A DNA stretch of 63,790 nucleotides, filler included, from Reclinomonas americana ATCC 50394 (lineage: Eukaryota): assembly GCA_048213135.1 (NCBI GenBank). It is 3 parts of 2 records of this genome, joined end to end, with 100 filler letters (N's around TTAATTAATTAA, not from the genome) between each part and the next. Parts side by side here need not be neighbours in the genome. Positions count along the whole stretch, not along the records: positions 1 to 30,192 come from PS015271.1; positions 30,293 to 52,573 come from PS015271.1; 1 more part is not named here. One strand, given 5' to 3'. Shown here one piece after another: positions 2,980-58,700 of the stretch (its first letter is position 1; each line of letters begins with the position of its first letter). Both the position numbers and the translations under genes were made by a program. The notes beneath the pieces are model-generated. The model had not been told where the DNA came from and made no database searches. It saw only the letters and a list, made by a program, of their open reading frames with translations.

Positions 2980-5005
2980 TCAGTTGGCCATGAAGTCACC
3001 ACCTGCGAGGGAATAGGCAACAGCATCAGCAACATGTTCTCACAGAGGACATCTCTCTTTCTCTCCAACTCTCAGACCACAAACCCTCCTTCGCACCCCT
3101 CTTGCCCGACCACTCTTCAGACAAACGCTGCATCAGATTGCCTTCTCTTCTCTCCAATTCTCCGACCACACCCCTTTCTTTCCTCTCCACCACTAGAATC
3201 AGAGCCCAGATGCTCACAGTATGGAGCGCGCACATTCCCCTCCTACCCCCCTTCTACCCCCCTTCTCCTCCCCTTCTCCTCCCCTTCTCCTCCCTTTCCC
3301 CTTTCCCCCTCCACACCATTAATATCAATGGAGGCCCCGTTAATATGCGCCGCACTCTCCGTCGCCAGGAACCCAATCAACGACGCAATCTCCGCCGGCT
3401 GCGCCATGCGACCGGCCGGACACCGCCTCTCCCACGCCGCCAGCGTCTCGGCCGGGAAAAACTTGCGCAACTCCTAACAAAAAAGAAGGGTGAGGAGCGG
3501 TCACGAAAGAAACGCAGGGGTGCAAGTTTTCTTTACCGGCGTGTCGACGAGGGACGGGCACACTGCGTTGACGGTGATGCCGTGGCGCGCCTCCATGCAC
3601 GCCAGTTGCCTGGTGAGACCGAGCAGACCGGCCTTGGAGGCGCTCACGGGGAGGGAGCCTGGCGTGTCACTCGTGAGGAAACGCAAAAAGGGGGGAAAAG
3701 GTGGAGATGGGGGGTGACGAACCGCCACGGCTGTGGCTCTTGCCGGCCTTGGACGACAGATTAATGATGCGTCCCCAGCCGGCCTCACGCATCTGCGGTG
3801 AATTGTGAGGGGATGCGGGGATGGGGAAAGGGAGGAAGTACTTCTAATGTTACGCAACGTACTTGATCGCAGCGCGGCATGTGTAGAACGAGCCCTGTGG
3901 GTGAATAGCGAGTGAGGAGACAATGGAGCAGATCATCTTGCTCCTTCTCGTGACTCTTAGATGCGCGCTCACTCATCGCGATCCGCACAAACAACGGAGC
4001 TTGATCTCTTGAACAGCAACTCGCATGCAGAGTTCCTTCGCCAGCAGATCATCTCGCTCCTTCTCGTGACTCTGAAATGCGCGCTCACTCATCGCGATCC
4101 GCACTGACAACGGAGCTTACTCTCTTGAACAGCAACTCGCATGCAGAGTTCTTTCGCCGACTTTCGAGTACACAGAGCTCTGTCTTGCTCACCCACTCTC
4201 CATCTCAGACACAGGACTCATCCCCTCTTGTTGTTCACTCCGATCGACCATGCTGTTCTTGCACATTTCTCTTGTTATCTACTTTGTGTGCACCACTACA
4301 AGTCGCTCAAGCTGCAATCCTGCCTGCCTGTCTGGGGTTCCCATGCAACACAGAACTTACTCGCGAATAGGAGTTCAATGCCTCGCCATCTATCTTATCT
4401 CTCAGTGTCTTCACTGAGCACCCACCATTGTGGTAAACCTTTTCGATACTTGTCCTCCCTTTCCTGCATCCCTCCCTTCCCCTTCCATCCACACTCACCG
4501 ACAAATTGAAATCCATGATCAATCGCCACTCCTCATCCGTCATCTCACAAATGTCCTTGTTGGGACGCGTAATCGTCGCACAGTTGACCAGAATGTGCAA
4601 CCGACCGCCCATATCCTCCGCCGCTCGGGACACCACAATGCGGACCTCCTCCGAGCTCGACACGTTGAGTGGGATGATTGAAATACGTTGCGCTGTTGGG
4701 GAGAGGAATGAGACAGAATACAAGAGTTGCTGCTCGTGCGCGCGCGCACACCTCCAGCAGGCGATGGTGGTGCGACAGGCAGCGCGGCCACGCACGCGCG
4801 CAGAGCCGTCTCGTCCACACCCGTCGCCACCACCGACGCACCCATGGCCCACAACTGGTGGACCACCGCGCAACCAATGTCGCGGGAGCAGCTGCGGCGG
4901 GGCGAGGAAATGCGATGAGCGCGGGGGTGAGGGAAGACAACCGTCGACGGGCAACACGAACCCAGTCACCAGAGCCACGCGACCGTGGAGAGGTGGGAGC
5001 ACGGC
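2980..5005 (-). CDS. Short-chain dehydrogenase/reductase (FabG-like fold) with atypical active site; start exon not located
   Basis: Spliced exons read AVLPPLHGRVALVTG-CSRDIGCAVVHQLWAMGASVVATG...-LHILVNCATITRP...MTDEEWRLIMDFNLS-GSFYTCRAAIKY-MREAGWGRIINLSSKAG...-GSLPVSASKAGLLGLTRQLA..GITVNAVCPSLVDTP-..GRMAQPAEIASLIGFLATESAAHINGASIDING-GDFMAN*. Confidence 0.9.
3925..4160 (+). repeat. Direct duplication of ~118 bp in an SDR intron
   Basis: gcagatcatct..gctccttctcgtgactct...atgcgcgctcactcatcgcgatccgcac...tcttgaacagcaactcgcatgcagagttc occurs twice in tandem. Confidence 0.85.
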
Positions 5006-5551
5006 CTGAGAGGAGGGGGTGAGTTATGGATCGCAGAAGGGAGGCTTGCAGAAAGTATGACACACGACTGGAGAAGAAGCATGAAACAAGACAGACAGTG
5101 ATCCACAATCATCACGATTCTCTCTCTCACACAAACTACGGTGAAGGACAAGACTCCAATTCGAACAGGGTGCTCTGCTGTTGATCTCTCTCGACAGGAG
5201 GAGACAGCTCACTCGGGGATGGATTGCCTTTCGAGAAACAGGGTGTTGCTCACTTTCTCTCTCTCTCTCCTCAAAACGAAGTATGCTTGGCTGTTCTCAT
5301 TGTCTTATCGATCCGCAACATGCAAGGCTCCATGTCCCTCGCAATCACTACAGAATCACTGGTGCTTCTCGGCAGCAAGACAACTCACTAAAATCTCAGA
5401 CTGACGCTCGATGATCAAGGGCGTCTCTCTCTCTCTCTCTCTCTCTCTCTCNNNNNNNNNNNNNNNNNNNNNNNNNNNNNNNNNNNNNNNNNNNNNNNNN
5501 NNNNNNNNNNNNNNNNNNNNNNNNNNNNNNNNNNNNACACTACTACTACTA

Positions 5552-5930: not shown

Positions 5931-18034
<12,104 letters not shown>

Positions 18035-18694: not shown

Positions 18695-21600
18695 TTAATA
18701 ACCCTCACCCTCATCAACCATCACACCGGTAAAATCCGGCAAAAAGCAGCTGAGGACGCGATCTACCAGCCCTCCGCCAAAGCCACGCATCATAATAATA
18801 GAGCTTCCGGTGGCGAGGACTCCGACAATGTCGTCGGCAAATGCGACGGTACGTGCTGAATCGACCAAGGTATCGTGCCGCAACTCCTCACCGCTCGTCA
18901 GCGACCACACACGTACGGTCTCATCGTCACTCCCACTGATTACGTGCTGACCATCGGGGGAGACCGCAACTGACCTCACGGCAGCAGTGTGCCCCTCCAA
19001 CCGCAGCGAAGCCTCACCGCTTGCCAGCGACCACACCAACACTGTCCCGTCAAGACTGCCACTGACAATGTGCTGTCCGTCGGGTGTGATGGTGACGGAG
19101 AGCACGTAATCAGTGTGGCCCTTGAGCTGACGCACTTCTTCTCCCGTTGCCAATGACCACACTCGTACCGTCCTGTCCAGGCTCCCACTCACAGCGTGCT
19201 CTCCGTCGGGCGTCACGGCGATAGAGATCACTTCATGCGAGTGTCCGTTAAGTTGACGTACTTGCTGTCCGCTCTCCAACAGCCAAACCCGCACCGTGTA
19301 GTCGCGACTCGCACTCACAATGTGCTGGCCGTTGGGAGTGATGGCAACCGAGTGTACTGCATTGGCATGCCCCTGCAAGCAACGCACTTGGTCTCCACTG
19401 TCCATGGACCACACTCGTATTGTCATGTCACCTCCGCCGGTCACCACATGCGTGCCGTCGGGTGTGACAGCCACCGACCGCACCATTTCCGTGTGCCCCT
19501 CCAATCGCAACACCTCTTCTCCACTGTGTACACACCACACACGCACAGTCTTATCACAAGCGCCACTGACAATGTGCTTGCGATCGGGTGTGGCAACAAC
19601 CGACAACACATCACCGGTGTGCCCTTCGAGCCGTCGGACCTCTTCACCACTTCCCGCAGACCACACCTGGATGGTGCCGCGGCAGCGGCCTCCACTTCCA
19701 CTCACAATGCGGTCACCACCGGGGGAAACAGCGACACNNNNNNNNNNNNNNNNNNNNNNNNNNNNNNNNNNNNNNNNNNNNNNNNNNNNNNNNNNNNNNN
19801 NNNNNNNNNNNNNNNNNNNNNNNNNNNNNNNNNNNNNNNNNNNNNNNNNNNNNNNNNNNNNNNNNNNNNNNNNNNNNNNNNNNNNNNNNNNNNNNNNNNN
19901 NNNNNNNNNNNNNNNNNNNNNNNNNNNNNNNNNNNNNNNNNNNNNNNNNNNNNNNNNNNNNNNNNNNNNNNNNNNNNNNNNNNNNNNNNNNNNNNNNNNN
20001 NNNNNNNNNNNNNNNNNNNNNNNNNNNNNNNNNNNNNNNNNNNNNNNNNNNNNNNNNNNNNNNNNNNNNNNNNNNNNNNNNNNNNNNNNNNNNNNNNNNN
20101 NNNNNNNNNNNNNNNNNNNNNNNNNNNNNNNNNNNNNNNNNNNNNNNNNNNNNNNNNNNNNNNNNNNNNNNNNNNNNNNNNNNNNNNNNNNNNNNNNNNN
20201 NNNNNNAGGACACCCGCCCTGTATGCCCTTCCAATCGTCGTACTTCCTCCGCGGTCTCCACTGACCACACTCTCACAGTCTTGTCGGAGCTGCCACTGAC
20301 AATGTGCTTTCCGTCGGGCGTGAAGGCAACAGACTCCACACTCCCAGTGTGCCCCTTGCAACAGAGCATGAGACTACCAGTCTCCAGCGACCACATGCGC
20401 AACGTCTCGTCGATGCCACCGCTCACAACGAACAGACCATCCGGACTGGTCGACACGCATTTGACTCCCTCAGTGTGACCCTCAAATCGCCGCACTTCAT
20501 CACCACTCGCCAGTGACCACACACGCACAGTTTTATCAATACTGCCGCTCACGACATGCTTACCGTCGCGGGTGATCGCGACGCACGATACACCGTCGGT
20601 ATGTCCATTGAACCGCCGTACTTCCCCTCCACTCGCCGCCAGCGACCACACGCGTACGGTATAGTCGTTGCTCCCACTGACAACATGTTTCCCATCAGGA
20701 GCCACGGCAACTGCCCAAACTTGGCAAGTGTGTCCCTTCAACATCCGCACTTCTTCACCAGTCGCCAGCGACCACAAACGCACAGTCGTGTCCCCACTGC
20801 CACTCACCACGTACCGATCGTCGGGAGTGACAGCCACCGAAAACACCCACTTCGCGTGCCCGGTCAGCTGCCTCACTTGTGCACTGTTCTCCATTGACCA
20901 GACTCGCAAAGTCATGTCCCCACTCCCACTTACTACGAACTGACCATCATAACTGCAGGCGACCGAAGCCACCCCCATGGTGTGTCCTTTCATCGGTTTC
21001 CTCGGCCACCTCACATCCGTCACATCCGCCCCTGTGAAATCCGCCTCCCNNNNNNNNNNNNNNNNNNNNTCGCAAACGCCATGCACACATTCACCCCACG
21101 TAAATCCGCTCCCCTCCACACCGTCCTGTGCATCACCGCATCCCTCAAATCCGCACCCCTCACTCGCACGCCCGACAGATCTCGGCCGCTGTACGACACT
21201 TGAGCCACACTCAACACCGTCGCTGCATTCGCAGCAGCCGTCACCACTCGATCGTCATCCTCCACGCGAGACAAATAAATTACCTCCCACAATCTCGCTT
21301 GCAATCGAGGAGATCGTCGCACCACCTCGGCCATTTGTTCCACCAACGATGGTCGATCATTCAGCAGTCGCACTGCCAGCACATGCTGCTGCACATCTTG
21401 CATTGTCAGTCTCTCGGCGTCTCCCCACGTCTCCCATGCAAACATATGCCGTGCCACGCAGTGCTCCAGCAAAGACAGATGCACAAAACCCCACTGCGTC
21501 GTCCCAAATCGTCGCACAATCGGGCAGCACACACGCACGTGCCGGTTCTTGTCGCCAAGAAACTTGTCCCACGGCCCCTCATCTGCTCTCGCAACTGGTG

Positions 21601-23347
21601 ACGACGGAGCGCCGCAAAAGTCATCTTCTTCTTCTTCATCGTCACCGAACTGGTTGTGGGGCGACGAGACACGCACCGCATTCCTCTCGTGCATCAACCG
21701 CGCCAGTCCCTCACAGAATGCAAGACACGTCTCCTCACTCGGCACACGTTCCGCACCAACACGTGTCTGCCTCTCCTGCTCCCTCGCAATCCACTGGCGA
21801 ATGAATCGGTCAAACACATCGCGCCGAGTCGGTCGTTGCACACCACTCGCAACCAACTGCGGCAGTACGCGAGCCACCACTGTCAGCAGGAACGGATTCG
21901 ACACCAGCGCATCCAGTCCATGTACACTCTTCAGTGCACGAATGTACTCCTCGGCAGTCGACCATCGCACCTCACCGTCGTCACTATCGCCATCCACTTG
22001 CACCAGTCGCTCAAAGTACTCCTCAATCTGCACCTTGCTGAAGGCTGCAACGTGCCGCTCCAGCAGCTGCCGCAAGCATAGCTGTCCACGTGTATCCACC
22101 GGTGCAAAGTACCGTCGATACTGCGCCGATCCACCCAGTGCCGTCAGTGCGAAGTCACCGCGACAGGTGATAATCACCTTCACATCGCGACACACATCCA
22201 GTTGGTTCTTGACAAACAGATTCACACCACGGTACAACTCGTCGTACCCGTCAAGCAACAACAGCAATGGTTTCTCCCTCTTCAACCGTCGCACATCCGT
22301 CTCGCTGAATCCCAACTCGGGCGACAGTCGCTCCAATGCCTCCTCCAACAATCGCTCATCGGAGCTGCGCAGTGAACCAAGAGGCACACGGACCGGTAGT
22401 CTTTGCCGACTCCCACGTGGCTGTTGCCACTGTCGCCAAGCCCGCTCGGCCAACAACGACATGGTGGTGGTCTTGCCGGCGCCACTGTTGCCAAACAGCA
22501 CCAGCACACGGTGGGTGGTGTTGGTGTCGGCGAGGAATGCATCAACCTCGGTCAGCAGGTCCGTCAACTCCTTGGATTCGCGCTCCCGGGAACACAGCAG
22601 TGGTACGTACATCTGCATGTCCTTGCGCACACTCTCGTCGTGTTGATAAAACGAGAGCTCACGTACAGCCAGTCGATGCAGTCGCTCTTCGAATGTGTCC
22701 ATGAAGAAGCGAGCATGGCACGCCTCACGGATACGGGTGGTGTACCGCGCAAACTCGTCAGCCGTGAGCCACAATCGAGAAAGGATGGAGAGAAAGACAC
22801 CATCGTCGCCGAGATACCGGAGAACTGTTGTATCTGTCCACGGCGGCGGGTTGTGTATCAGCACGTTCCTCACGTCACGAAGTTGCTCCACAGCCTTGCG
22901 CTCGTCAACGTCGTCAATTAGCAACAGCTTGCGACCATCCTCGCAAAGGAGTCCACCGTACAGCATGATGGACGAGAGGGCAGTCGTGTCGAAATCGGTA
23001 CACGAGGGGTCGGACGAGGGGTCGGCATCGAATGCAGCACGCCAGGCCAACACCGCCGGCTGCTTCTCCTCAAACAACTTGACTCTCCCGGGGAGGAGTG
23101 GAGCATGTCGCGTACGCCAAGCCTTCACAGCCACGGAGTGCATGTGCAAGCCAGTCGGCACAATGCTCGGAACCCACATACACAGATCGCCAGTGTTGAT
23201 CCGTGGAGACCACATATCAGATGCCCAAGCCCGCGCATCAAAGTCGGCATGATCGCGACTGAACTGAGCCATCGAGTACAGGCAGCGAATACCCGCTGCC
23301 TCCTCCACAGCCTCGAACCCCATGTGGACGCGCTGCGAGTTGATCAT
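18695..23347 (-). CDS. STAND/NLR-like protein: N-terminal HEPN-like domain, NACHT, pentapeptide repeats, at least 13 WD40 repeats; intronless where sequenced, interrupted by two N gaps
   Basis: Walker A GNSGAGKTT (22469-22492); Walker B LLLLLDGYDE; KVIITCR sensor; NPFLL (GxP-like) motif; pentapeptides RDLSG/ADLRD/ADLRG/ADFTG; 42-aa WD40 units LEGHTxxVxSVAVTPDGKHIVSGSxDxTVRVWS; N-terminal DFDTTALSSIML...EQLRDVRNVLIH. Confidence 0.92.
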
Positions 23348-23728
23348 GCTGCGCGCACAATAATTTCTGTCAGCACATCAGAGCACTGTGCTTTACGCAG
23401 AAGAGGGGAAAGCAGCAAACCGCGTCTCTCGTTCCGATGGGCTGCAATCATGCGGGGGAGGGGCGGAGTGAGAATGCTTGGGTAATTTGGGAAGACCGAT
23501 ACAAACAATTCTCGTTCCCCGTGCTCAGATGTGCAAACCCGCTGATTCTACCTGTTAGGACTACCATGGCAGGGGATAATCACCAAGGTCTCCCCTCATT
23601 CACTCATTCACACGCACACACAAAGTCTCTCAGTCTATTCCACACGCTAACCCTTTCGCACTCTCCCACGTTTCTCACCGACTCTCACGCGCAATCTCTT
23701 NNNNNNNNNNNNNNNNNNNNCAACGCAG

Positions 23729-28404: not shown

Positions 28405-28616
28405 ATGAAATGGAGCAAGTTTTTGCGTCGCCAAGCGGCGGCCATGTCATCGCAGCAATCTGCCCAACAACAGCAGAATGAGGGCAGTGGCAGCAGTGGC
28501 AAGTCGGTCCATTCAGTGAACGAGGCCTCTGGTTCAAGTGCGTTGGCGACGCGCTTTTTGGTGTCGTATGATGCGCTCAAGGCGATTGTCAAGTCCGCGC
28601 GATTGCAAGGTCAGTG

Positions 28617-28651
<35 letters not shown>

Positions 28652-31600
28652 GAGAGAGGAGGAGAGAGAGAGAAGAAGAGAGGAGGTGTGAGAGAGAGAA
28701 GAGAGTAGAGAGAGAGAGAGNNNNNNNNNNNNNNNNNNNNCCCTCACTCGCTCACTCCTTCCCTCCCTCCTTCCCTCCCTCCTTCCCTCCCTCCTTCCCT
28801 CCCTCCTTCCCTCCCTCCTTCCCTCCCTCCTTCCCTCCCTCCTTCCCTCCCTCCTTCCCTCCCTCCTTCCCTCCCTCTTCCTCCCTCCTTCCCTCCTCCC
28901 TCCTCTCTCCCCTCCAATCCCCTCGTCTCTCTTCCCTCTCTCTCTCCCCTCCCGCTTCCCTCAACCCCCCTCTCTCCCCTTCTTTCGCTCAGTGTCTCGC
29001 TCCCCTTCTTTCGCTCAGTGTCTCGCTCGTCACTTGATCACCTTTCGCGCGTCCTTGCTTGCCTGATTACATCACCTGCAGCGTGCTTCATACGCTTCTC
29101 GTCTTCTTCTTCATCGACCTGTCTCAGTTGGTCTTGTGTGATATCTTACTCATCTTTTTCTCCTTCCGCTGCACAGACGATGCATCACGCATGACGAGTG
29201 ACTTCATGCGGACTCTGCGGCGCGAGGTGGACGATGCCGATGAGTTGTACCGTGCCGAGTTGTTGCGATTGTCGGCGCGCTTGGATCAGTTCGAGAAGCG
29301 TTGCGAGGAGGTGAGTGGGTTTAATGATTTTATGGAGGGTTGGCAATTTGCTTCTATCGCTCTTTCTCTCTCTCTCGCTCTGTTGCTCTCGCTCTCAGTC
29401 GCTCTTGCTATCGCGCTTGCTCTGTCGATCTTGCTCTTGTCGCTCTTGCTCTGTCGCTCTGTCGCTCTTGTCGCTCTTGCTCTTGTCGCTCTTGCTCTTG
29501 TCGCTCTTGCTCTTGTCGCTCTTGCTCTTGTCGCTCTTGCTCTTGTCGCTCTTGCTCTTGTCGCTCTTGCTCTTGTCGCTCTTGCTCTTGTCGCTCTTGC
29601 TCTTGTCGCTCTTGCTCTGTCGCCCTTCCCTCACTTTGTCGCGCTTCCCCACACCTTTCTTTTCTTTCTCCCCGCCCCCACCCTTCTCCTCCTCCCCTCC
29701 CTTCTACCCTCTCTTCTCCCTGTCCTTCTCCCTTCTCCCCCCCTTCTCCCCTTCTCCCCCCTTCTCCCTTCTCACCACCCTTCTCCCCTATTGTAGATCC
29801 TCCACTCGAGCACCACCCGCGCCTCCACCACCCGCCGCCTCCGCCACACCGCCCAGACACTGGAGCGTGAGCTCTCCTCGCTCCGCCTCTTTGCCGAGTT
29901 CAACTGCGAGTCGGTGCGCAAGGCGTGCAAGAAGCTGGACAAGTGCCTCCTGCGCCTCGAGCGTCTCAACGCCGACGCCGTCGACGCCGCCGGCGCTCCT
30001 TCTGCTGCCGCCGCCCCCTCGTCGACGGCGCCAGTGCCGTGGTCTCTCGGCCTCTCGGTCTCACTGTCGCCGGCCGCCAGTTCCGCCGCGCCGGCAGCCA
30101 ATCGCCGTTGCCAGCAGGCGCTGTCGACGGCCTCATTTTCCTCCTCCGACAATCTCCTGGAGCTGATTGCGCGCGTGGGCTCGTTGCGCGCGNNNNNNNN
30201 NNNNNNNNNNNNNNNNNNNNNNNNNNNNNNNNNNNNTTAATTAATTAANNNNNNNNNNNNNNNNNNNNNNNNNNNNNNNNNNNNNNNNNNNNCGCATCGA
30301 CGCCGACAGCCTGCGCATTCACGAAAAGGCGGAGCAGCAAGAGTCGTCGTCGATTCGCCGTTTCCTGCTGTGCACGGCGGTGTTGTCGTCGCTCTTCCAT
30401 TTCATGTTGCCGGAGGTGTCGGTTAGTGATCAAGGGCGCTCTTTGCTTCTGTAGTGATTACTCACCTTTGTGTCCCCCTCGCGCAGCTCTCGCTCCTGGG
30501 CGCCGCCACGCACACCTTTATGGTCTACGTCATGTACCACTTGAACATGCGTCGCGTGCACGTGCGCCAGCTCTTCCAGGCCACGGCCGTGCTTGCTCGC
30601 TTCGCATTCCACCGCCACGTGCGCCGCCAGCATGCGACCGCCATTCCCGCGCCGCTCCACCCGACCGAGGTGCACGTCACCACGTTCTTCTCGTACCTGC
30701 CGCTCAACTTCTTGTCCAAGGCGTGGGGNNNNNNNNNNNNNNNNNNNNNNNNNNNNNNNNNNNNNNNNNNNNNNNNNNNNNNNNNNNNNNNNNNNNNNNN
30801 NNNNNNNNNNNNNNNNNNNNNNNNNNNNNNNNNNNNNNNNNNNNNNNNNNNNNNNNNNNNNNNNNNNNNNNNNNNNNNNNNNNNNNNNNNNNNNNNNNNN
30901 NNNNNNNNNNNNNNNNNNNNNNNNNNNNNNNNNNNNNNNNNNNNNNNNNNNNNNNNNNNNNNNNNNNNNNNNNNNNNNNNNNNNNNNNNNNNNNNNNNNN
31001 NNNNNNNNNNNNNNNNNNNNNNNNNNNNNNNNNNNNNNNNNNNNNNNNNNNNNNNNNNNNNNNNNNNNNNNNNNNNNNNNNNNNNNNNNNNNNNNNNNNN
31101 NNNNNNNNNNNNNNNNNNNNNNNNNNNNNNNNNNNNNNNNNNNNNNNNNNNNNNNNNNNNNNNNNNNNNNNNNNNNNNNNNNNNNNNNNNNNNNNNNNNN
31201 NNNNNNNNNNNNNNNNNNNNNNNNNNNNNNNNNNNNNNNNNNNNNNNNNNNNNNNNNNNNNNNNNNNNNNNNNNNNNNNNNNNNNNNNNNNNNNNNNNNN
31301 NNNNNNNNNNNNNNNNNNNNNNNNNNNNNNNNNNNNNNNNNNNNNNNNNNNNNNNNNNNNNNNNNNNNNNNNNNNNNNNNNNNNNNNNNNNNNNNNNNNN
31401 NNNNNNNNNNNNNNNNNNNNTGCGCTGCACAAGGTGCGCTTGCCCAAGTGGGTGCGCAAGCCGCTGTACACTGTGTGGTGAGTGGGAGGTGGAAGAGGGT
31501 GGTGTGGGTGGGTCACATTCTCTTTCCTGGGGTTTCCTCCTCACGCGTCTTGATGAAGAAAGCGCACACACTCATTTCCAAGTCACCTATTCGCTAGCCT

Positions 31601-33966
31601 CGTCACTCTCTCTCTCTCATTCCTTCTCTGCATGCTGTGACCTACGCCGACGTGCTCCTCGCTCCTCTTTTGCTCATACTTCTCGATGTGCGCGTTGCTG
31701 CTCCGTGTCACGTGCTTTGCTCACGTGTTCTTTTCACGTTCATTGCTGCGCTTGACTTCGATTTCTGGACTTCATTCCGCCATATCTGCGTTGCGAGCTT
31801 TTGCCGCCCTGATGCTTTCATTGCGCTCTTCTGTTGCTCTTCTCCCTCGGGTTTCTCGCTTCGCCTCTCTCCTGCACTGGATCACTCGAATTGCTGTGCC
31901 CACCTCCGCACTGCTCGCTTCGTGCACTATTTGCCTCTCCTGCTCTTCTTCCCCATGCTTCACTCTTCGCTGCACTCCTTCTCTTTCGCTCCACCACCCT
32001 GTCGTCTATCTACTCACCACCCGGCCTCCTCTTTGTCTCATAGGTGCACTGTTCTCGGCACCGACATTGACGAATGCCGCTACCCGCTGGAGACCTACGC
32101 CAATCTCGGCGAGTTCTTCTGCCGCCCGCTCAAGGACGGTGTGCGTCCCATTGGTGAGACTTCGCTGGTCAGCCCGGTGGACTCGCGTGTGGTGTCGTGC
32201 GGCGAGGTGCAGGGCGACAGACTAGATCAAATCAAGGGTCTGTCGTACTCGCTGTCCCAGTTCCTCGGTCTGCACAACAAGGTGGACGAGGACGACGATG
32301 AGATGGAGGACGAGCCGGCGCGCGCCGATTCGCCAACATTGTCGGACGAGTCTGCGANNNNNNNNNNNNNNNNNNNNNNNNNNNNNNNNNNNNNNNNNNN
32401 NNNNNNNNNNNNNNNNNNNNNNNNNNNNNNNNNNNNNNNNNNNNNNNNNNNNNNNNNNNNNNNNNNNNNNNNNNNNNNNNNNNNNNNNNNNNNNNNNNNN
32501 NNNNNNNNNNNNNNNNNNNNNNNNNNNNNNNNNNNNNNNNNNNNNNNNNNNNNNNNNNNNNNNNNNNNNNNNNNNNNNNNNNNNNNNNNNNNNNNNNNNN
32601 NNNNNNNNNNNNNNNNNNNNNNNNNNNNNNNNNNNNNNNNNNNNNNNNNNNNNNNNNNNNNNNNNNNNNNNNNNNNNNNNNNNNNNNNNNNNNNNNNNNN
32701 NNNNNNNNNNNNNNNNNNNNNNNNNNNNNNNNNNNNNNNNNNNNNNNNNNNNNNNNNNNNNNNNNNNNNNNNNNNNNNNNNNNNNNNNNNNNNNNNNNNN
32801 NNNNNNNNNNNNNNNNNNNNNNNNNNNNNNNNNNNNNNNNNNNNNNNNNNNNNNNNNNNNNNNNNNNNNNNNNNNNNNNNNNNNNNNNNNNNNNNNNNNN
32901 NNNNNNNNNNNNNNNNNNNNNNNNNNNNNNNNNNNNNNNNNNNNNNNNNNNNNNNNNNNNNNNNNNNNNNNNNNNNNNNNNNNNNNNNNNNNNNNNNNNN
33001 NNNNNNNNNNNNNNNNNNNNNNNNNNNNNNNNNNNNNNNNNNNNNNNNNNNNNNNNNNNNNNNNNNNNNNNNNNNNNNNNNNNNNNNNNNNNNNNNNNNN
33101 NNNNNNNNNNNNNNNNNNNNNCCTTCTCCCCTTTCCCCTTCTCTCTCCCTTCTCCTCCCTTCTCCTCCCTTCTCTCTCCCTTGTCCTCCCTTCTCTCTCC
33201 CTTCTCCTCCCTTCTCTCTCCCTTGTCCTCCCTTCTCTCTCCCTTCTCCTCCCTTCTCCTCCCTTTCCCCCTTCTCCTTTTCCCTTCCCCCTTCCCCCTT
33301 TCTTCCCTCACATCCCCCTTTTCCTCACTTCCCCCTCTTAGCCCCCCGCGACACCGCCACCCGCCTTCTTGGCGCCCGCGCCCTCGCCGAAGGCAAGAAG
33401 CTCTTCCAAATCGTGCTCTACCTGGCCCCCGGCGACTACCACCGCATTCACTCACCATCCGACTGGCTGATTGAGAACCGCGTGCACTTCCCCGGCGCCC
33501 TGCTGCCCGTCAACCCGCCCTTTGTGGGCCTGGTGCCGAATGTGTTTTCGGTGAACGAGCGTGTGGCGCTCACTGGCCGCTGGGACCAGGGCTTCTTCTC
33601 ACTCACCGCCGTCGGCGCCTACAATGTCGGCTCCATTGTGCTGTCGTTTGACAAGGTTTGTGTGGGAGCATGTGATGAAGCACCACCATCGGTTCCGCTG
33701 TCCTTGTTCCTCACTGCCTACGTTCACAGGAAGTGGAGACCAACAAGAGCTGGCTGCAGCCGGGCAAGAAGGTGATGAATCCGTACGGACCCGGCACCTC
33801 GTACGAGCGCAACTTCCCCACCGGTATCTCGGTGGAGAAGGGCGAGGACATTGCGCACTTCCGCCTGGGTTCGACGGTGGTCCTCGTGTTCGCCGCCGAC
33901 GCCCGCACCGAGTTCGCCGTCAAGGTCGGCGACAAGGTGCGCATGGGCCAGCCGCTGCTGCGCTGA
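28405..33966 (+). CDS. PSD: SPX domain, two hydrophobic segments, then phosphatidylserine decarboxylase proenzyme (LGST type)
   Basis: SPX exons: 28405-28609 (MKWSKFLRRQ...VSYDALKAIVK), 29177-29310 (FMRTLRREVDDADELYRAELLRL), 29797-30192 (LRLFAEFNCESVRKACKKLDK...FSSSDNLLELIARV). PSD exons: LPLNFLSKAWG, LPKWVRKPLY, YANLGEFFCRPLKDGVRPI, VSPVDSRV, QIKGLSYSL, YLAPGDYHRIHSP, VNERVAL, VGAYNVGSI, FRLGSTVVLVF (LGST 33865-33876), KVRMGQPL. Each domain is high confidence; the fusion crosses an assembly linker. Confidence 0.85.
28755..28875 (+). repeat. (CCTTCCCTCCCT)n 12-bp intronic minisatellite
   Basis: Direct reading. Confidence 0.9.
29420..29620 (+). repeat. (GCTCTTGTCGCTCTT)n 15-bp intronic minisatellite
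   Basis: Direct reading; it produces spurious ALVAL and QERQE ORFs. Confidence 0.9.
30193..30292. other. Artificial scaffold linker N44-TTAATTAATTAA-N44
   Basis: Exactly 100 bp with a central all-frame stop palindrome; the same structure occurs at 52574-52673. Confidence 0.95.
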
Positions 33967-51643: not shown

Positions 51644-53068
51644 TGGAAGAGTGAGCGAGTGGATAAGTGATAGTGAGTGTTTGCTTGATAGTGTCACCCT
51701 TCCCAACCCTCTCTCTCCCCACTCTCCCTCTCCCTCCCCTGTCTCCCCCACCTGCGCCTTCTGCAAGTGCGACTTGAGCGCCTGCCTATGCGGAGGAGTC
51801 GGCCCTCGACTCACAGCAGCAGCAGTTGTTGTTGTTGAAGTCACGCGCGACACTCGTGACGACTGCTGCCTGCGCATCGACTGCAACTGATGCTGCTGCT
51901 GTTGCTGCATCAGCTGCGCAGGCGGCACGTGCACCAGTGGTGCGTGGCGAGTGGGTGGAGCAGGGGGTTTGCCACTCTCATCCATTCGTACTGTCGCACT
52001 TGCTGTGACTGACACACACACACACAAGTGCGCGTTGTGTTTAGTGTCGCACACGCACACACACAGAGAGCGCGCACAGCAGTGGCGAGTGAGTGAGAGT
52101 GCAAACGTTGTTGGCGGGAAAAAACGAGTGCATGACGCACGTGCGTGTAACTGTCCCATCGTGACGCATTCTCACTTTGCATTCATGTCGTTCAGAGGTG
52201 AGAAGGCGCATGCGCGCGAGGGAGGGAATGAGTGTGTGAGACAGTGAGAGTGAGAAGAAGAGTGCTGTGTCCGATTTCATGCAACTTGACTCTCACTTGC
52301 ACACTGAAGGGGAGAGGTGCTTTGCGCTTAGGCGTCACCTTAGGCGTGATAGGCGTCGCCTAATGTCACCTGAGAAGTACAGCTTGCTCTCACTCACAGA
52401 CACGCATGTGCAGGGAAGGAGAGACTTGTAAAGTGCACATAGGCGTCACCTTAGGTGTGATAGGCGTCGCCTTATCTGCAGAAGTTCAGTCTGCAGTCTA
52501 TCTCTCTCTCTCTCTCTCACACACACTCGCAGGGAAGGAGAGACCTTGTAATGTGCACTTAGGCGTCACCTTANNNNNNNNNNNNNNNNNNNNNNNNNNN
52601 NNNNNNNNNNNNNNNNNTTAATTAATTAANNNNNNNNNNNNNNNNNNNNNNNNNNNNNNNNNNNNNNNNNNNNGGACAGAGAGAGACAGGAAAACAGGAA
52701 AGGAAGAGAAGCAAAGAGGAAAGCAAAGGGGAAGAAGGGAGGAGAGCAAGAGAGGGAGCAAAGAAGGAGAGAGGAAGGAGAGAAACGCACCAGGAGTGGC
52801 CGACTGCGCTCGGGACGTGCGCGACAGGCTGGGCGTGGCCGCCGTCTTGGTGTGTTCGGATTGTTTCCGGTCGTGATGTTCTCGCGAGGCGCCCGCACCG
52901 CCGCCAACATGACTCGACGATGAGGGACGTGCTGGTCGCTGAGACGAATCGGCATCTGTGCAGAGAGTGAGAGCTGTTAGAATTACACGTCACGCACACT
53001 CCTTCGCTCTCTCTCTCTCTCTTTCGCCCGTCTCACTGACCTGCTTTCCCGGTGGTGTTGGACGACAT
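49517..53068 (-). CDS. Gln/Pro/Ser-rich exons, possibly the N-terminal extension of the Dbf4-like gene; start at 53068 (MSSNTTGK) or 51985 (MDESGKP)
   Basis: AG/GT-bounded open frames at ~53041-53068, 52791-52955, 51753-52003, 51160-51448, 50761-51030, 49717-50214 (PAPAPA run) and 49517-49654. Phases are compatible where checked. Linkage to the Dbf4 core crosses N gaps. Confidence 0.5.
52111..52122 (-). promoter_or_regulatory. E2F-type motif TTTTCCCGCCAA
   Basis: Matches the E2F consensus TTTSSCGC, about 125 bp upstream of the ATG at 51985. Confidence 0.35.
52300..52573 (+). repeat. About 3 copies of a ~115-bp unit containing palindromic TAGGCGTCACCTTAGGYGTGATAGGCGTCGCCT
   Basis: Copies at ~52329, 52440 and 52560 (the last truncated by the linker). 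Confidence 0.8.
52574..52673. other. Artificial scaffold linker N44-TTAATTAATTAA-N44
   Basis: Same 100-bp structure as 30193-30292. Confidence 0.95.
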
Positions 53069-53298
53069 GGTGTGGTCACGAGAGGCCGCCGCGTCAGAGA
53101 CAGAGAGGAGCGAGAGAGAGAGAAGGACGACTCTTCAACGCGTTCGAGCTCAAACGTTCGTTGTGCTGATGTGCTGGGTGTCACCATGGTACATCATCTC
53201 TGCAAAAGAGGAAAGGCGCGCATCCTCGCAAAGCCGCGTACGTAGTGATAGAGGAGTTTTCCCTGTCCCCGGCGGACACCATCCCGATTTCACCATCC

Positions 53299-54883
53299 AT
53301 GTCGCTCTGCGAAATCATCGCCGACACCGCCAAGGACGACGACGCGGTGCTGCAGGAGTTGCAGGAATGGGTGCTGACGCATGGTGTTGAGGCACTCGAG
53401 CAGGAGTCGCCGAGCACACTGCACACGCCGGCGTATGCCGCCGCCCGCCGCGGCCTGCTGCGCTCGCTGGCCTATATCGCACAAAATGCACCTTCGCGAG
53501 GTCTCGTGTTGGAGACGCCTCCGCGGTATAGCCAGTGGACGCCGGCGCATATTGCGTGTGATGCGGGTCACGTGGCGGTGGTGCAGTACTGTGTGGAGCA
53601 TGCGCCGAGTGGGGCGCAGGTGTTGGAGCGCGCGAACGACGACGGGCGCACCTTGGCGTTGCTCGCCGCCAACAACGGGAGTCTGGAGATGCTGCGCTAT
53701 GTGGCCGCACACGCGCCGAGTGGGGCGCGTGTGTTGGAAATGGGAAACCGACAGACGTGCGCGTGGCCGGCCACACCGTCCATGATTGCGGCCGCACGAG
53801 GCGATGTGGCTATGCTGGAGTACATTGTGTCGCACGCACCTAGCGGAGCTGCGACGCTGGAGCGTGTGGATTCGAACGGGTACACGGCGGCGGAGCACGC
53901 TTGTCGACAGGGCAAGTTGGAGGCGCTGGCCTTTATCGTTGAGCACGCACCGAGCCACGGTCAGCTGCTCGTCCAGCGCAACAGGAACGACAGCAGCATT
54001 CTCGTGCAGTGCGCCACCGTGCCGGTGCTGCAATTCGTTGTGCAGCGCGTGCACGATGGCGCGCGAATGCTCGAGTTGCCGTGTATGGCGGACGAGTGGA
54101 CTTTGGCGCTGTACTTGGCTCGACAGGGCCAGCTGGAGGAGCTGCAGTATGTGGTGGCGGCGGCGCCGAGTGGCACCCTGGTGCTGGAGGCGGTCGGCAG
54201 CAGCGGCTTCACGACGGCACTCGGCGCATGCCAGATCGGCCACCTGCCGCTGCTGCGCTACATTGTGGCGACGGCGCCGAGCGGCAGCCGTCTGCTGGAG
54301 TGTGCCGAGACGAAGAACGGCAACACCCCGGCACACCTGGCGGCCCGGTCCACCCATCATGGTGTGAGCGCGGATGGTGTCTACGACCAGCTGGGTCAGC
54401 TCGACTTTATCGCGCAGGTGGCGCCCAGCGGTTGGCGAACGCTGCTGGTGCCCAATCGGCAACAGCGCACGCCAGTGCAGGAACTGGTCGGCAGCATGCA
54501 TGTGGCGCACCTGGCGGTGCGTATCCCGGCGTTTCTGCGGCGGCACTTGCCGATCGCCAGAGTGCTGCTTCGCCACCTCAACTCCCTCATCGGCGACCTG
54601 AAGGAGCAGCAGTTCGACGACCTGGTCGAGGAATACAGCNNNNNNNNNNNNNNNNNNNNNNNNNNNNNNNNNNNNNNNNNNNNNNNNNNNNNNNNNNNNN
54701 NNNNNNNNNNNNNNNNNNNNNNNNNNNNNNNNNNNNNNNNNNNNNNNNNNNNNNNNNNNNNNNNNNNNNNNNNNNNNNNNNNNNNNNNNNNNNNNNNNNN
54801 NNNNTGGCGGCGACGGCGGCGATGGTGGTGGCGATGATGATGACGGGTATGACAGTGAGCCGGAAGTTGGTATGGAGTGGTGA
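53299..54883 (+). CDS. Intronless ankyrin-repeat protein (about 9 repeats with an APSG insertion) and an acidic tail after the gap
   Basis: Repeats such as WTPAHIACDAGHVAVVQYCVEHAPSGAQVLERANDDG and YTAAEHACRQGKLEALAFIVEHAPS; post-gap frame GGDGGDGGGDDDDGYDSEPEVGMEW*. Confidence 0.88.
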
Positions 54884-55797: not shown

Positions 55798-58700
55798 ATG
55801 CACTCGCGGAGAGTGTCTTTGTTCCCTATGCTGTCACCGTCGTTGTCGTCTTCTGTAGCAGCGGCGGCAAGACGAGCGGCGCGGCTGCTTTTGTTTGCTG
55901 TCGTGTGGATTTTTGTGCTGTCGGCTACTGGCTCCGATGCCGCAGTGCAAGCACCAGGCAGTTGCGTTGTCCTCCACAATCAAGTACACGGGGCGCGCAT
56001 GTACACACGCACACTCTCAGAGTGCGTGGGGAGAAAGTGATTCAGTGGACGCATATGAATCAGACAAACACACACACGCATGCACACGCACTCTCTCTCT
56101 CATGCGAGGCACACGATAGGATGTGTGCGCGTGCGAAGAAACTTGCGGATCTATTTCTTCCGCACTTAATTCTCACGAATGTCGCTCTCTCGCTTCTCGT
56201 GTCCCTCTCGCTCTCTCTCTCTCGCTCTCTTTCTCGCTCCTCGTGTCGCTCTCTCTTTCTCGCTCCCTATGTTGCTCTCTCTCTCTCGCTCGTCGTGTCG
56301 CTCTCTCNNNNNNNNNNNNNNNNNNNNNNNNNNNNNNNNNNNNNNNNNNNNNNNNNNNNNNNNNNNNNNNNNNNNNNNNNNNNNNNNNNNNNNNNNNNNN
56401 NNNNNNNNNNNNNNNNNNNNNNNNNNNNNNNNNNNNNNNNNNNNNNNNNNNNNNNNNNNNNNNNNNNNNNNNNNNNNNNNNNNNNNNNNNNNNNNNNNNN
56501 NNNNNNNNNNNNNNNNNNNNNNNNNNNNNNNNNNNNNNNNNNNNNNNNNNNNNNNNNNNNNNNNNNNNNNNNNNNNNNNNNNNNNNNNNNNNNNNNNNNN
56601 NNNNNNNNNNNNNNNNNNNNNNNNNNNNNNNNNNNNNNNNNNNNNNNNNNNNNNNNNNNNNNNNNNNNNNNNNNNNNNNNNNNNNNNNNNNNNNNNNNNN
56701 NNNNNNNNNNNNNNNNNNNNNNNNNNNNNNNNNNNNNNNNTCGCTCTCTCTCTTTCTCCCTCCTCATGTCGCTCTCTCTCTCTTTCTCGCTCCTCGTCTC
56801 GCTCTCTCTCTCTCTCTCTTTACTCCTCGTCTCTCTCTCTCTCTCTTCTCGCTCCTCGTGTCGCTCTCGCTCTCTCGCTCCTTGTGTCGCTCTCACTCTC
56901 TCACCCTCGTGTCGCTCTCTCTCTCTCGCTCCCCGTGTCGCTCTCTCTCTCTCCCTGTCTCTTACCCCCGCCCTTCTCCCTTTCCCCTCCTCCCTTCTTC
57001 CCTTCCCCCCTCAGTGTGCAAGGGAGGCGCCTCCCCGCTCGTCTCCTGGACCAATGGCACTCGCACGGCTGGCCTCTGCTCTGGCTCCTTCACCGCCATC
57101 ATGAATACGTCGGCGGATGGCCTATGCAACACCTCGTACTCGGTGTGCACCAACCTGGATGGCGGCAGCAGCGGCCCTCTCGCCCAGATTACCTCGGCCG
57201 CCGTCAAAGCGGTTCCCGGTTGCTTCGCCTTTAGAGCAGCTGGTGATTCGAACTCATGCAAGGCGCTCAACTTTGCTGACCCCAACTCGAATGACATTGT
57301 CGGAATTGGCGGGGAATGCAGGTGTGTGTGTATGTGTGCGGGTGAGGGAGTGATATGCAGACTAAAATTGTGCGCTGAATACTATTCGTTGTTCTCCCGC
57401 AGTGTGAAAGTATTAGGAGCAGGCTGCACTGCCGACACCATGATCTTTGCCGCCAACAGCACGGGTGGCGATTTCGTGAATATCTACACCCAGATTGGCG
57501 TCGTGTGCTGCACGACTGTCACCAACAATGCTCCCACGGACATCCTTCTCAGTGACGTCACCTATGCTGCACCGTCAGCTGTGGGTACTTTAGTCGGCAC
57601 TTTGTCTGCCGTGGACATCGACGCGGGCAACACCTTTACGTTTTCGATTACGGGCGGAACGGATGCCGCAAATTTCGCAATATCGTGCGTGCAGTGCGTG
57701 TCGTTTTGCGTGCGATCCATGTCGATGCTCACCAAGCATGGTTGCTGCAACTGCAGATCGACATCGCTGAAGATTGTGAATGCTGGCGTTAGCACCACGC
57801 TTTTCGGTACGCAGCGCTGCGCCGATTCCGCACACCATGGTCAGCTAATTTATTGTTTTTTGACTCTTGCCAGTGACCATCTCGGTTACCGACAACAACG
57901 GCGGCACATTCTCCAAGAATTTTTCCATCACTCGTTGCGTGCAAAAGCCGCTGCGTGTAACCTCGCTGTGGTATTTACGAAGCTGCATCACTTCNNNNNN
58001 NNNNNNNNNNNNNNNNNNNNNNNNNNNNNNNNNNNNNNTCAGCTGTTACCACGCCATCGGCTCCCACCTTGTCTACATCCACGTACACACCGCCACTTGC
58101 TCTGAGCGGCATCGTCGGTACCTTGTCGGCTACCGACCCGAATACGGCGCAGACGCTGACCTTCACTATCATTGGAGGCACAAACCAGACTTTATTTGCC
58201 ATATCTGGCAACAGTCTTGTCTCTGCAGTGTCTGGACTTACCGGTAATAGCCTGCAAGTGATTGTGCAAGTGGCGAATAATCTCGGCAAAACGAGTTCCA
58301 CAACGTTTACTATCAACGAGCGTTGCGTCAGCTTATTTATTGACCCTGACGCGAAATCTCGGGAATTTCACAAGCCTCATCACTGACAATTCTACATCTT
58401 GGTGCGCAGTCAATGTTGCGCCGACCGCGCCGACCCTTTCGTCGTCAACGTACACGCCGCCACTCGCGCTTAATGGAGTGATTGGCACTCTGGCGTCGAC
58501 CGACGTGAACACGGGTCAAGCATTGACGTACACGATCACTGGCGGCACCAATGCAGCTGCGTTCAACATCAGCGGTACCAGCTTGCGGTCAAGCATTGCC
58601 GGCCTGACGGGCAACAATCTGCAAGTGATTGTGCGAGTCAGTGATGGAACTCTGACGGCGAGTACAACATTTACGATCAACGAAGGTGTGTTGCTCTTGT

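Follow-up and report, generated by a model that had tools for sequence, protein, structure and literature searches.

SPX domains are eukaryotic readers of phosphate status; they are N-terminal, start at Met1 with an MK-aromatic opening, and precede an output module in effectors such as VTC4/VTC3 (SPX-TTM), PHO1/XPR1/Syg1 (SPX-EXS), Pho87/90/91 (SPX-transporter), NLA (SPX-RING) and Gde1/Pho81 (SPX-ankyrin-GDPD). To our knowledge, the known partners are all phosphate transporters, polyphosphate polymerases, ubiquitin ligases, transcription-factor inhibitors or glycerophosphodiesterases; Gde1 is the precedent for an SPX domain on a phospholipid-metabolising enzyme, and we know of no list of SPX partners that includes a pyruvoyl decarboxylase. 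Phosphatidylserine decarboxylases (PSDs) of type I are the mitochondrial enzymes (yeast Psd1, animal PISD, oomycete and Dictyostelium PSD1), while those of type II (yeast Psd2 with a C2 domain; plant PSD2/PSD3) are GGST-type and carry C2 or EF-hand modules; in PSDs, Asp, His and Ser residues have recognised roles, and self-cleavage at LGST yields the pyruvoyl group. Here, we analyse a 63,790-nucleotide stretch of Reclinomonas americana DNA (the window), a draft eukaryotic scaffold of 56.6% GC interrupted by 24 N runs, in which the locus at 28405-33966 appears to join an SPX-like domain to a type I PSD.

Compared with mitochondrial type I PSDs, the window protein is 62-69% identical over exon 8 and shares the D-H-S residues, the LGST site, the S.WG......LP.W.R.P.Y motif and an upstream anchor at the aligned position; it differs in that ~265 residues of SPX-like domain plus an extra hydrophobic segment replace the N-terminal presequence, and in having an acidic insert after the FLG motif. 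With the SPX-fused effectors it has in common an N-terminal SPX-type domain followed by an output module, and the spacing of the Y/K pair and of the lysine cluster; its output, instead, is a pyruvoyl decarboxylase belonging to aminophospholipid synthesis, and its SPX part is far more divergent, below the Pfam cutoff. As for the type II PSDs, they also have an N-terminal ligand- or membrane-sensing extension in place of the mitochondrial signal, whereas the window protein is LGST-type and its module is SPX-like.

Gene model and the decarboxylase half

Splicing the DNA by coordinates, nine exons on the + strand between 28405 and 33966 give a single frame from ATG through TGA, and the resulting model has 684 residues, with 10 X standing for a 764-N gap. 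On balance, we read these exons as a single protein-coding gene that would specify at least ~680 residues in three modules: a divergent SPX-type domain, a hydrophobic hairpin and a type I PSD. The ATG at 28405 has a Kozak-like context (CCACCATG), and the protein begins MKWSKFL. All the visible introns (5/5) are of the GT..AG kind with consistent phases, the exon junctions being 28609/29177 (phase 1), 29310/29797 (phase 0), 30421/30487 (phase 0), 31477/32044 (phase 2) and 33655/33730 (phase 0). GC at third codon positions (GC3) is 0.65-0.94 across all nine exons; the introns have 52-57% total GC, are 58-97% pyrimidine (97% in one stretch) and are crowded with tandem repeats. These repeats, at 28619-29789 and 33136-33336, are pyrimidine-rich with periods of 12, 15, 18, 21 and 31 nucleotides, plus (AG)n.

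The features of the locus are listed below; P0121 is a metagenomic protein of 221 residues, encoded on a single ENA contig of 1319 bp from a source independent of the window.

28405..28609, + strand: exon 1; start codon and SPX-like helices 1-2 (MKWSKFL; Y55-x3-K59) separated by a Q/S/G-rich insert; donor GTCAGT at 28610; GC3 0.65; alone without a Pfam match
28610..29176, + strand: intron 1; 567 nucleotides, phase 1; (AG)n, a 20-N gap and a 12-nucleotide pyrimidine tandem repeat
29177..29310, + strand: exon 2; SPX-like helix 3 (FMRTLRREVDDADELY...); BLASTP match to P0121 residues 18-54, E 1e-9; GC3 0.75
29311..29796, + strand: intron 2; 486 nucleotides, phase 0; 15- and 18-nucleotide pyrimidine-rich tandem repeats; P0121 contiguous over the junction
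29797..30192, + strand: exon 3; SPX-like helix 4 with K155/K158/K159/K162, an A/S/P-rich loop and a helix ending ...DNLLELIARVGSLRA; open up to the contig end; BLASTP match to P0121 72-169, E 4e-19
30193..30292, no strand: spacer, N44-TTAATTAATTAA-N44, with stops in six frames; non-genomic
30293..30421, + strand: exon 4; RIDADSLRIHEK..., end of the helical region and first hydrophobic segment (FLLCTAVLSSLFHFML); ungapped BLASTP match to P0121 170-212, E 1e-8; donor GTTAGT at 30422
30487..30728, + strand: exon 5; second hydrophobic segment, basic acid-free segment (residues 310-345) and start of the PSD N-terminal motif (LPLNFLSKAWG); separated from exon 4 by a 65-nucleotide GT..AG intron
30729..31420, no strand: scaffold gap of 692 N; the coding flanks meet in phase 2
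31421..31477, + strand: exon 6; ALHKVRLPKWVRKPLYTVW, conserved PSD N-terminal motif
32044..32357, + strand: exon 7; start of the PSD domain, predicted catalytic Asp (SPVD) followed by an acidic insert entering the gap; PF02666 E 1.8e-13; TIGR00163 positions 9-82
32358..33121, no strand: gap of 764 N, in which the exon 7 insert ends and an intron begins; its right flank, 33122-33341, is pyrimidine-repeat intron
33342..33655, + strand: exon 8; PSD core, predicted catalytic His (GDYHRIH); PF02666 E 1.2e-24
33730..33966, + strand: exon 9; LGST self-cleavage site, alpha chain and TGA stop; PF02666 E 3.6e-12

Regarding the PSD half, Pfam scans (24,736 families compared) were run exon by exon or on pieces, and PS_Dcarbxylase (PF02666) matched exons 7, 8 and 9 with 51.1, 87.5 and 46.8 bits against a cutoff of 22. 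The three matches are collinear (profile positions 2-62, 54-148 and 149-197 of 198), as are those of TIGR00163 (9-82, 87-173 and 187-239 of 243); the latter family gave 60.7 + 105 + 42 bits, each exon being under the cutoff of 111.75 and their sum, 207.7, well over it. In the alignment with 10 homologues, SPVD (431-434), GDYHRIH (532-538) and LGST (652-655) fall in the conserved catalytic columns: LGST occurs in 9/10 and FGST in 1/10, GDYH in 10/10, and the D column is conserved in 9/10, with one sequence gapped. The motif ahead of the domain, S.WG-six residues-LP.W.R.P.Y, is complete. Judged from its residues, this half is certainly a complete type I (LGST, pyruvoyl) enzyme and is predicted to be catalytically competent, so that the PSD with SPVD, DYHRIH and LGST described in the first-pass annotation is borne out.

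A word-based search with exon 8 gave 476 PSDs, the best 120 at 57-69% identity (Dictyostelia, oomycetes, fish); PF02666 is present in all of these 120, one of which has two further unrelated domains, and the SPX family, PF03105, is present in none of the 120 best-listed among the 476. In a FastTree phylogeny of the window protein with 35 of the 120 listed relatives (304 columns), the window forms a separate branch close to a group that includes Amoebozoa, a weak placement.

The SPX-like domain and its continuity with the PSD

The N-terminal part had been described as a complete SPX domain encoded by three exons. Its motifs are indeed there: YDALK (residues 55-59 of the spliced model), FMRTLRREV..ADELY (78-93), FNCESVRKACKKLDK (to 162) and FSSSDNLLELI immediately 5' of the spacer. 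The completeness, instead, did not extend to the profile: PF03105, with a gathering score of 27.8 bits, is the top family but sub-cutoff for exon 3 (E 0.0024, 18.4 bits), for a 61-residue helix-4 piece (E 4.5e-4, 20.8 bits) and for P0121 (E 0.0058, 17.2 bits), and all three matches are confined to the C-terminal block of the profile. The Pfam check proposed with the first description, done exon by exon, therefore succeeded for PS_Dcarbxylase and, for SPX, gave the best family at a score below cutoff.

The positions that contact the ligand in known SPX domains are present. All six, Y55/K59 (i, i+4) and K155/K158/K159/K162 (j, j+3, j+4, j+7), have a spacing identical to that of Vtc4 (Y22, K26; K129, K132, K133, K136) and AtSPX1 (Y25, K29; K136, K139, K140, K143), and Vtc3 is likewise, as given in two sources (PMC9911596; bioRxiv 10.1101/2019.12.13.875393). 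The "phosphate binding cluster" (a helix-2 Tyr and Lys at i, i+4, together with one Lys of helix 4) and the "lysine surface cluster" (helix-4 lysines) are accordingly kept at the sequence level, as in inositol (pyro)phosphate-binding SPX domains, and the claim that they are retained stands. The four helix-4 lysines are also retained in P0121, at ~40-45% overall identity. The pattern F...L..E......[LY]Y is typical of SPX helix 3 and is carried by helix 3 of the window domain, which starts at Met1 (MKW). Taken with the motifs, these traits make the N-terminal region probably homologous to SPX.

P0121 is the single relative of the SPX-like part: a HMMER scan with exon 3 over 1.84 billion representative proteins gave two matches, and P0121 (E 7.4e-10) is the sole genuine one. 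The other, P0122, a bacterial Ig-repeat protein (E 6e-6), was dismissed as a low-complexity match. Longer-protein homologues of exon 3, or of the profile of exon 3 and P0121, were not found by word-based search (with the profile, at E up to 10), which is weak evidence; a scan of metagenome contigs for the patterns RLF[AS]EFNC and RKA[CT]KK[LF]D gave 236 pattern matches, 0 confirmed. A complex prediction with the SPX-like helices supplied as three chains, by exon, scored 0.01, a value that is evidence neither for nor against the domain.

As for continuity, the first-pass annotation had the frame resume past the 100-bp linker at 30193-30292. According to PMC7907477, spacers with such a core and stops in all six frames are used for stringing together separately assembled scaffolds, sometimes in arbitrary order. 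Since this spacer is non-genomic and of the known scaffold-joining form, adjacency across it needed demonstration. Once it is excised, the frame continues, with 132 open codons to its left and 53 to its right. The demonstration came from P0121, which is genomic because its start looks like intron plus acceptor sequence. Exons 2, 3 and 4 are collinear on its residues 18-54, 72-169 and 170-212 (BLASTP, E values as listed), and the window's ...VGSLRA | RIDADSLR... corresponds to an unbroken ...AGNLRS RIDAKGDL..., the spacer point lying between residues 169 and 170. Exons 3 and 4 thus abut on P0121 in one open reading frame (ORF), and therefore the spacer joins truly adjacent sequence, with zero residues lost; P0121 is also contiguous over the exon 2/3 junction, which confirms that splice. 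The resumption of the frame was hence corroborated, P0121, from a second organism, being one ORF across the equivalent of exon 2, exon 3, the linker point and exon 4, first hydrophobic segment included.

A second N44-TTAATTAATTAA-N44 spacer is found at 52574-52673, and a lone N44 run at 57995-58038; the flanks of both are open in frame after excision and look non-coding, so they are uninformative on adjacency.

The 692-N gap falls mid-codon within the conserved PSD motif: the left flank ends ..LSKAWG (phase 2), the right flank begins ALHKVRLPKW, and the frame is kept once the Ns are excised. The resulting KAWG|ALHKVRLPKW has the AWG-6 residues-LP.W spacing of 10/10 aligned PSD homologues. With both spacing and frame preserved, no residue is missing there, and the gap is either spurious or exactly one intron. 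As neither this gap nor the spacer hides a residue, the assembly gap lengths do not reflect absent coding sequence; the assembly break points may be exon junctions or false gaps. The 764-N gap is flanked by TIGR00163 positions 82 and 87, so little conserved sequence is lost in it.

On the right side of the spacer, exons 4 and 5 are on one contig; in exon 5, no in-frame ATG precedes the hydrophobic segment, and this exon opens the PSD homology (..LPLNFLSKAWG), which passes into exon 6 without indels. Together with P0121 over the spacer, the contig shared by exons 4 and 5 and the lack of a start in exon 5 make the chain continuous: SPX-like region, anchor, PSD motif and PSD domain. Overall, the SPX-PSD fusion is well supported by the sequence.

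P0001, a 246-residue ORF on an ENA contig of 898 bp, is the PSD gene of a close relative read through short in-frame introns. Along 28 residues of the PSD core (LLPVNPPFVGLVPNVFSVNERVALTGRW) it matches the window at 100% identity, and the two share an intron position, at SFDK. P0001 may represent the remaining half of P0121's gene, or come from the same organism as P0121.

The membrane part had been presented as two hydrophobic segments. It is one hydrophobic stretch of 42 residues (~266-307), broken by PEVS and hence readable as two, with basic residues on either side; in the alignment, its second half corresponds to the oomycete PSD1 membrane anchor. Under the positive-inside rule, the basic flanks suggest a membrane hairpin, with the SPX-like domain predicted to face the same side as the PSD.

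Alternative readings and proposed mechanism

Several points weigh against taking the locus as one gene with an SPX-type sensor. The gene model comes from genomic sequence, and the join of exons 1 and 2 has no homologue backing; P0121 stops in the anchor, before the PSD, and the entire fusion is seen in one genome only, over two scaffold joins. Regarding the SPX half, every piece tested scores under the PF03105 cutoff, and this includes P0121, at just 17.2 bits despite its unsplit helices 3-6; exons 1 and 2 have no SPX match in Pfam even at E up to 10. Sequence and profile searches of the PDB returned no SPX chain, with chance-level matches to MazE7 (E 0.7) and a gamma-tubulin complex component (E 2.1 or worse) as their only yield. 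The AlphaFold model of P0121, which is without helices 1-2, is weak (mean predicted local distance difference test score, pLDDT, 59.7), with two long helices at 70-84; fold searches with it gave only generic helical hairpins, and Foldseek found no PDB match at E <= 0.001. Finally, directly after the hydrophobic stretch and Met309 lie the 36 residues 310-345, which have 7 K/R and zero D/E; they are presequence-like and permit a shorter, SPX-less product.

The profile and fold results bear on the explanation in which the fusion is real and its N-terminal helices are no working SPX sensor, either a degenerate relic or an unrelated extension for targeting or oligomerisation. This would agree with SPX scores that all stay under the gathering cutoff, with the silence of exons 1 and 2, with PDB and fold searches that gave no SPX chain and only generic hairpins, and with the 33-residue low-complexity insert that separates helices 1 and 2. 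On the other hand, two orthologues have SPX as their top Pfam family, the six ligand positions are at the published spacing with the four helix-4 lysines found in P0121 as well, and the domain begins at Met1 as SPX domains do; we therefore consider a non-sensing extension unlikely, although not negligible.

The basic segment leads to another explanation: the main product would be an ordinary mitochondrial PSD, made from Met309 or from an internal promoter located within intron 4 or beyond it, and the SPX form a minor or alternative isoform with dual localisation. In its favour, residues 310-345 follow a Met and could act as an internal mitochondrial signal or as the start of a short isoform, and the catalytic part shares 62-69% identity with PSD1 of the mitochondrial type. 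However, such a short form would lose the hydrophobic segment that aligns with the PSD1 anchor, which lies upstream of Met309; the exon 5 frame has no ATG from the upstream stop to the acceptor site; and the upstream exons are conserved as coding in P0121. An internal start as the main source of the enzyme is thus quite improbable. The same segment also touches the claim that SPX, standing in place of the presequence, implies a different location: the N-terminus is SPX-like and not a presequence, as claimed, but the presequence-like residues 310-345 mean that a non-mitochondrial location is not a safe conclusion.

That an SPX-plus-anchor gene and a separate PSD gene were united in scaffolding or through an erroneous junction of exon 4 to exon 5 is very improbable: the six-frame-stop spacer does mark a join of separately assembled and potentially arbitrarily ordered pieces, unspliced exon 4 meets a stop 10 codons on and P0121 ends ahead of any PSD sequence, but both sides of the spacer are one ORF in P0121, exons 4 and 5 lie on one contig, parted by a 65-nucleotide GT..AG intron in phase 0, and exon 5 has no start of its own upstream of the anchor segment and carries a PSD motif that continues in exon 6.

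For the three-module gene, a mechanism can be proposed by analogy with the other SPX-fused proteins. The SPX-like domain would bind inositol pyrophosphates, the cell's signal of phosphate status; the ligand, once on the basic surface, would alter the contact of the domain with the neighbouring enzyme; and the domain, which would share its side of the membrane with the enzyme, might switch PSD activity, maturation or partner binding. In this way, the synthesis of phosphatidylethanolamine from phosphatidylserine would track phosphate supply. Such gating of PSD by inositol phosphates is purely inferred, and the strongest version, namely a true inositol-pyrophosphate-gated PSD with a hairpin-held SPX sensor on the enzyme's face, possibly outside the mitochondrial inner membrane, is put forward tentatively, as a possibility short of an even chance.

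If it were true, aminophospholipid synthesis would gain its first SPX output and the type I PSDs their first ligand-gated member, and the phosphate signal would be tied directly to the production of a major membrane phospholipid. The protein would also offer a one-protein system for the control of an enzyme by SPX over a short membrane tether, and for the throttling of phospholipid synthesis at low phosphate.

As for novelty, no SPX-PSD fusion was found in literature searches, judged from their listings and with InterPro and paper supplements outside the scope; this and the PF03105 count of 0/120 among the listed PSD relatives are consistent with the earlier suggestion that the fusion is undescribed. 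The stops of the spacer and the runs of N would break gene calling, which may explain the absence of the full-length protein from the protein collections searched. More generally, six-frame-stop spacers and runs of N in draft assemblies can conceal unusual gene architectures from protein databases.

Elsewhere in the window

Over positions 1-63790, there are no Rfam families at gathering score and no tRNA genes. Pfam families were found in the following ORFs, and the other long ORFs of the stretch are mostly without one.

4310-5023, - strand: short-chain dehydrogenase fragment, Pfam E about 1e-8
7027-8391, - strand: Myb DNA-binding ORF, Pfam E 6e-17
53170-54639, + strand: ankyrin repeats ORF, Pfam E 3.6e-22

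In addition, the - strand at 18698-23377 has a NACHT (STAND NTPase) ORF of 769 residues, then WD40-repeat ORFs of 280 and 346 residues. They are parted by 20-N and 469-N gaps and form a single frame once the gaps are excised; by their sequence, they are probably one NACHT-WD40 gene, whose assembly was broken by its repeats.

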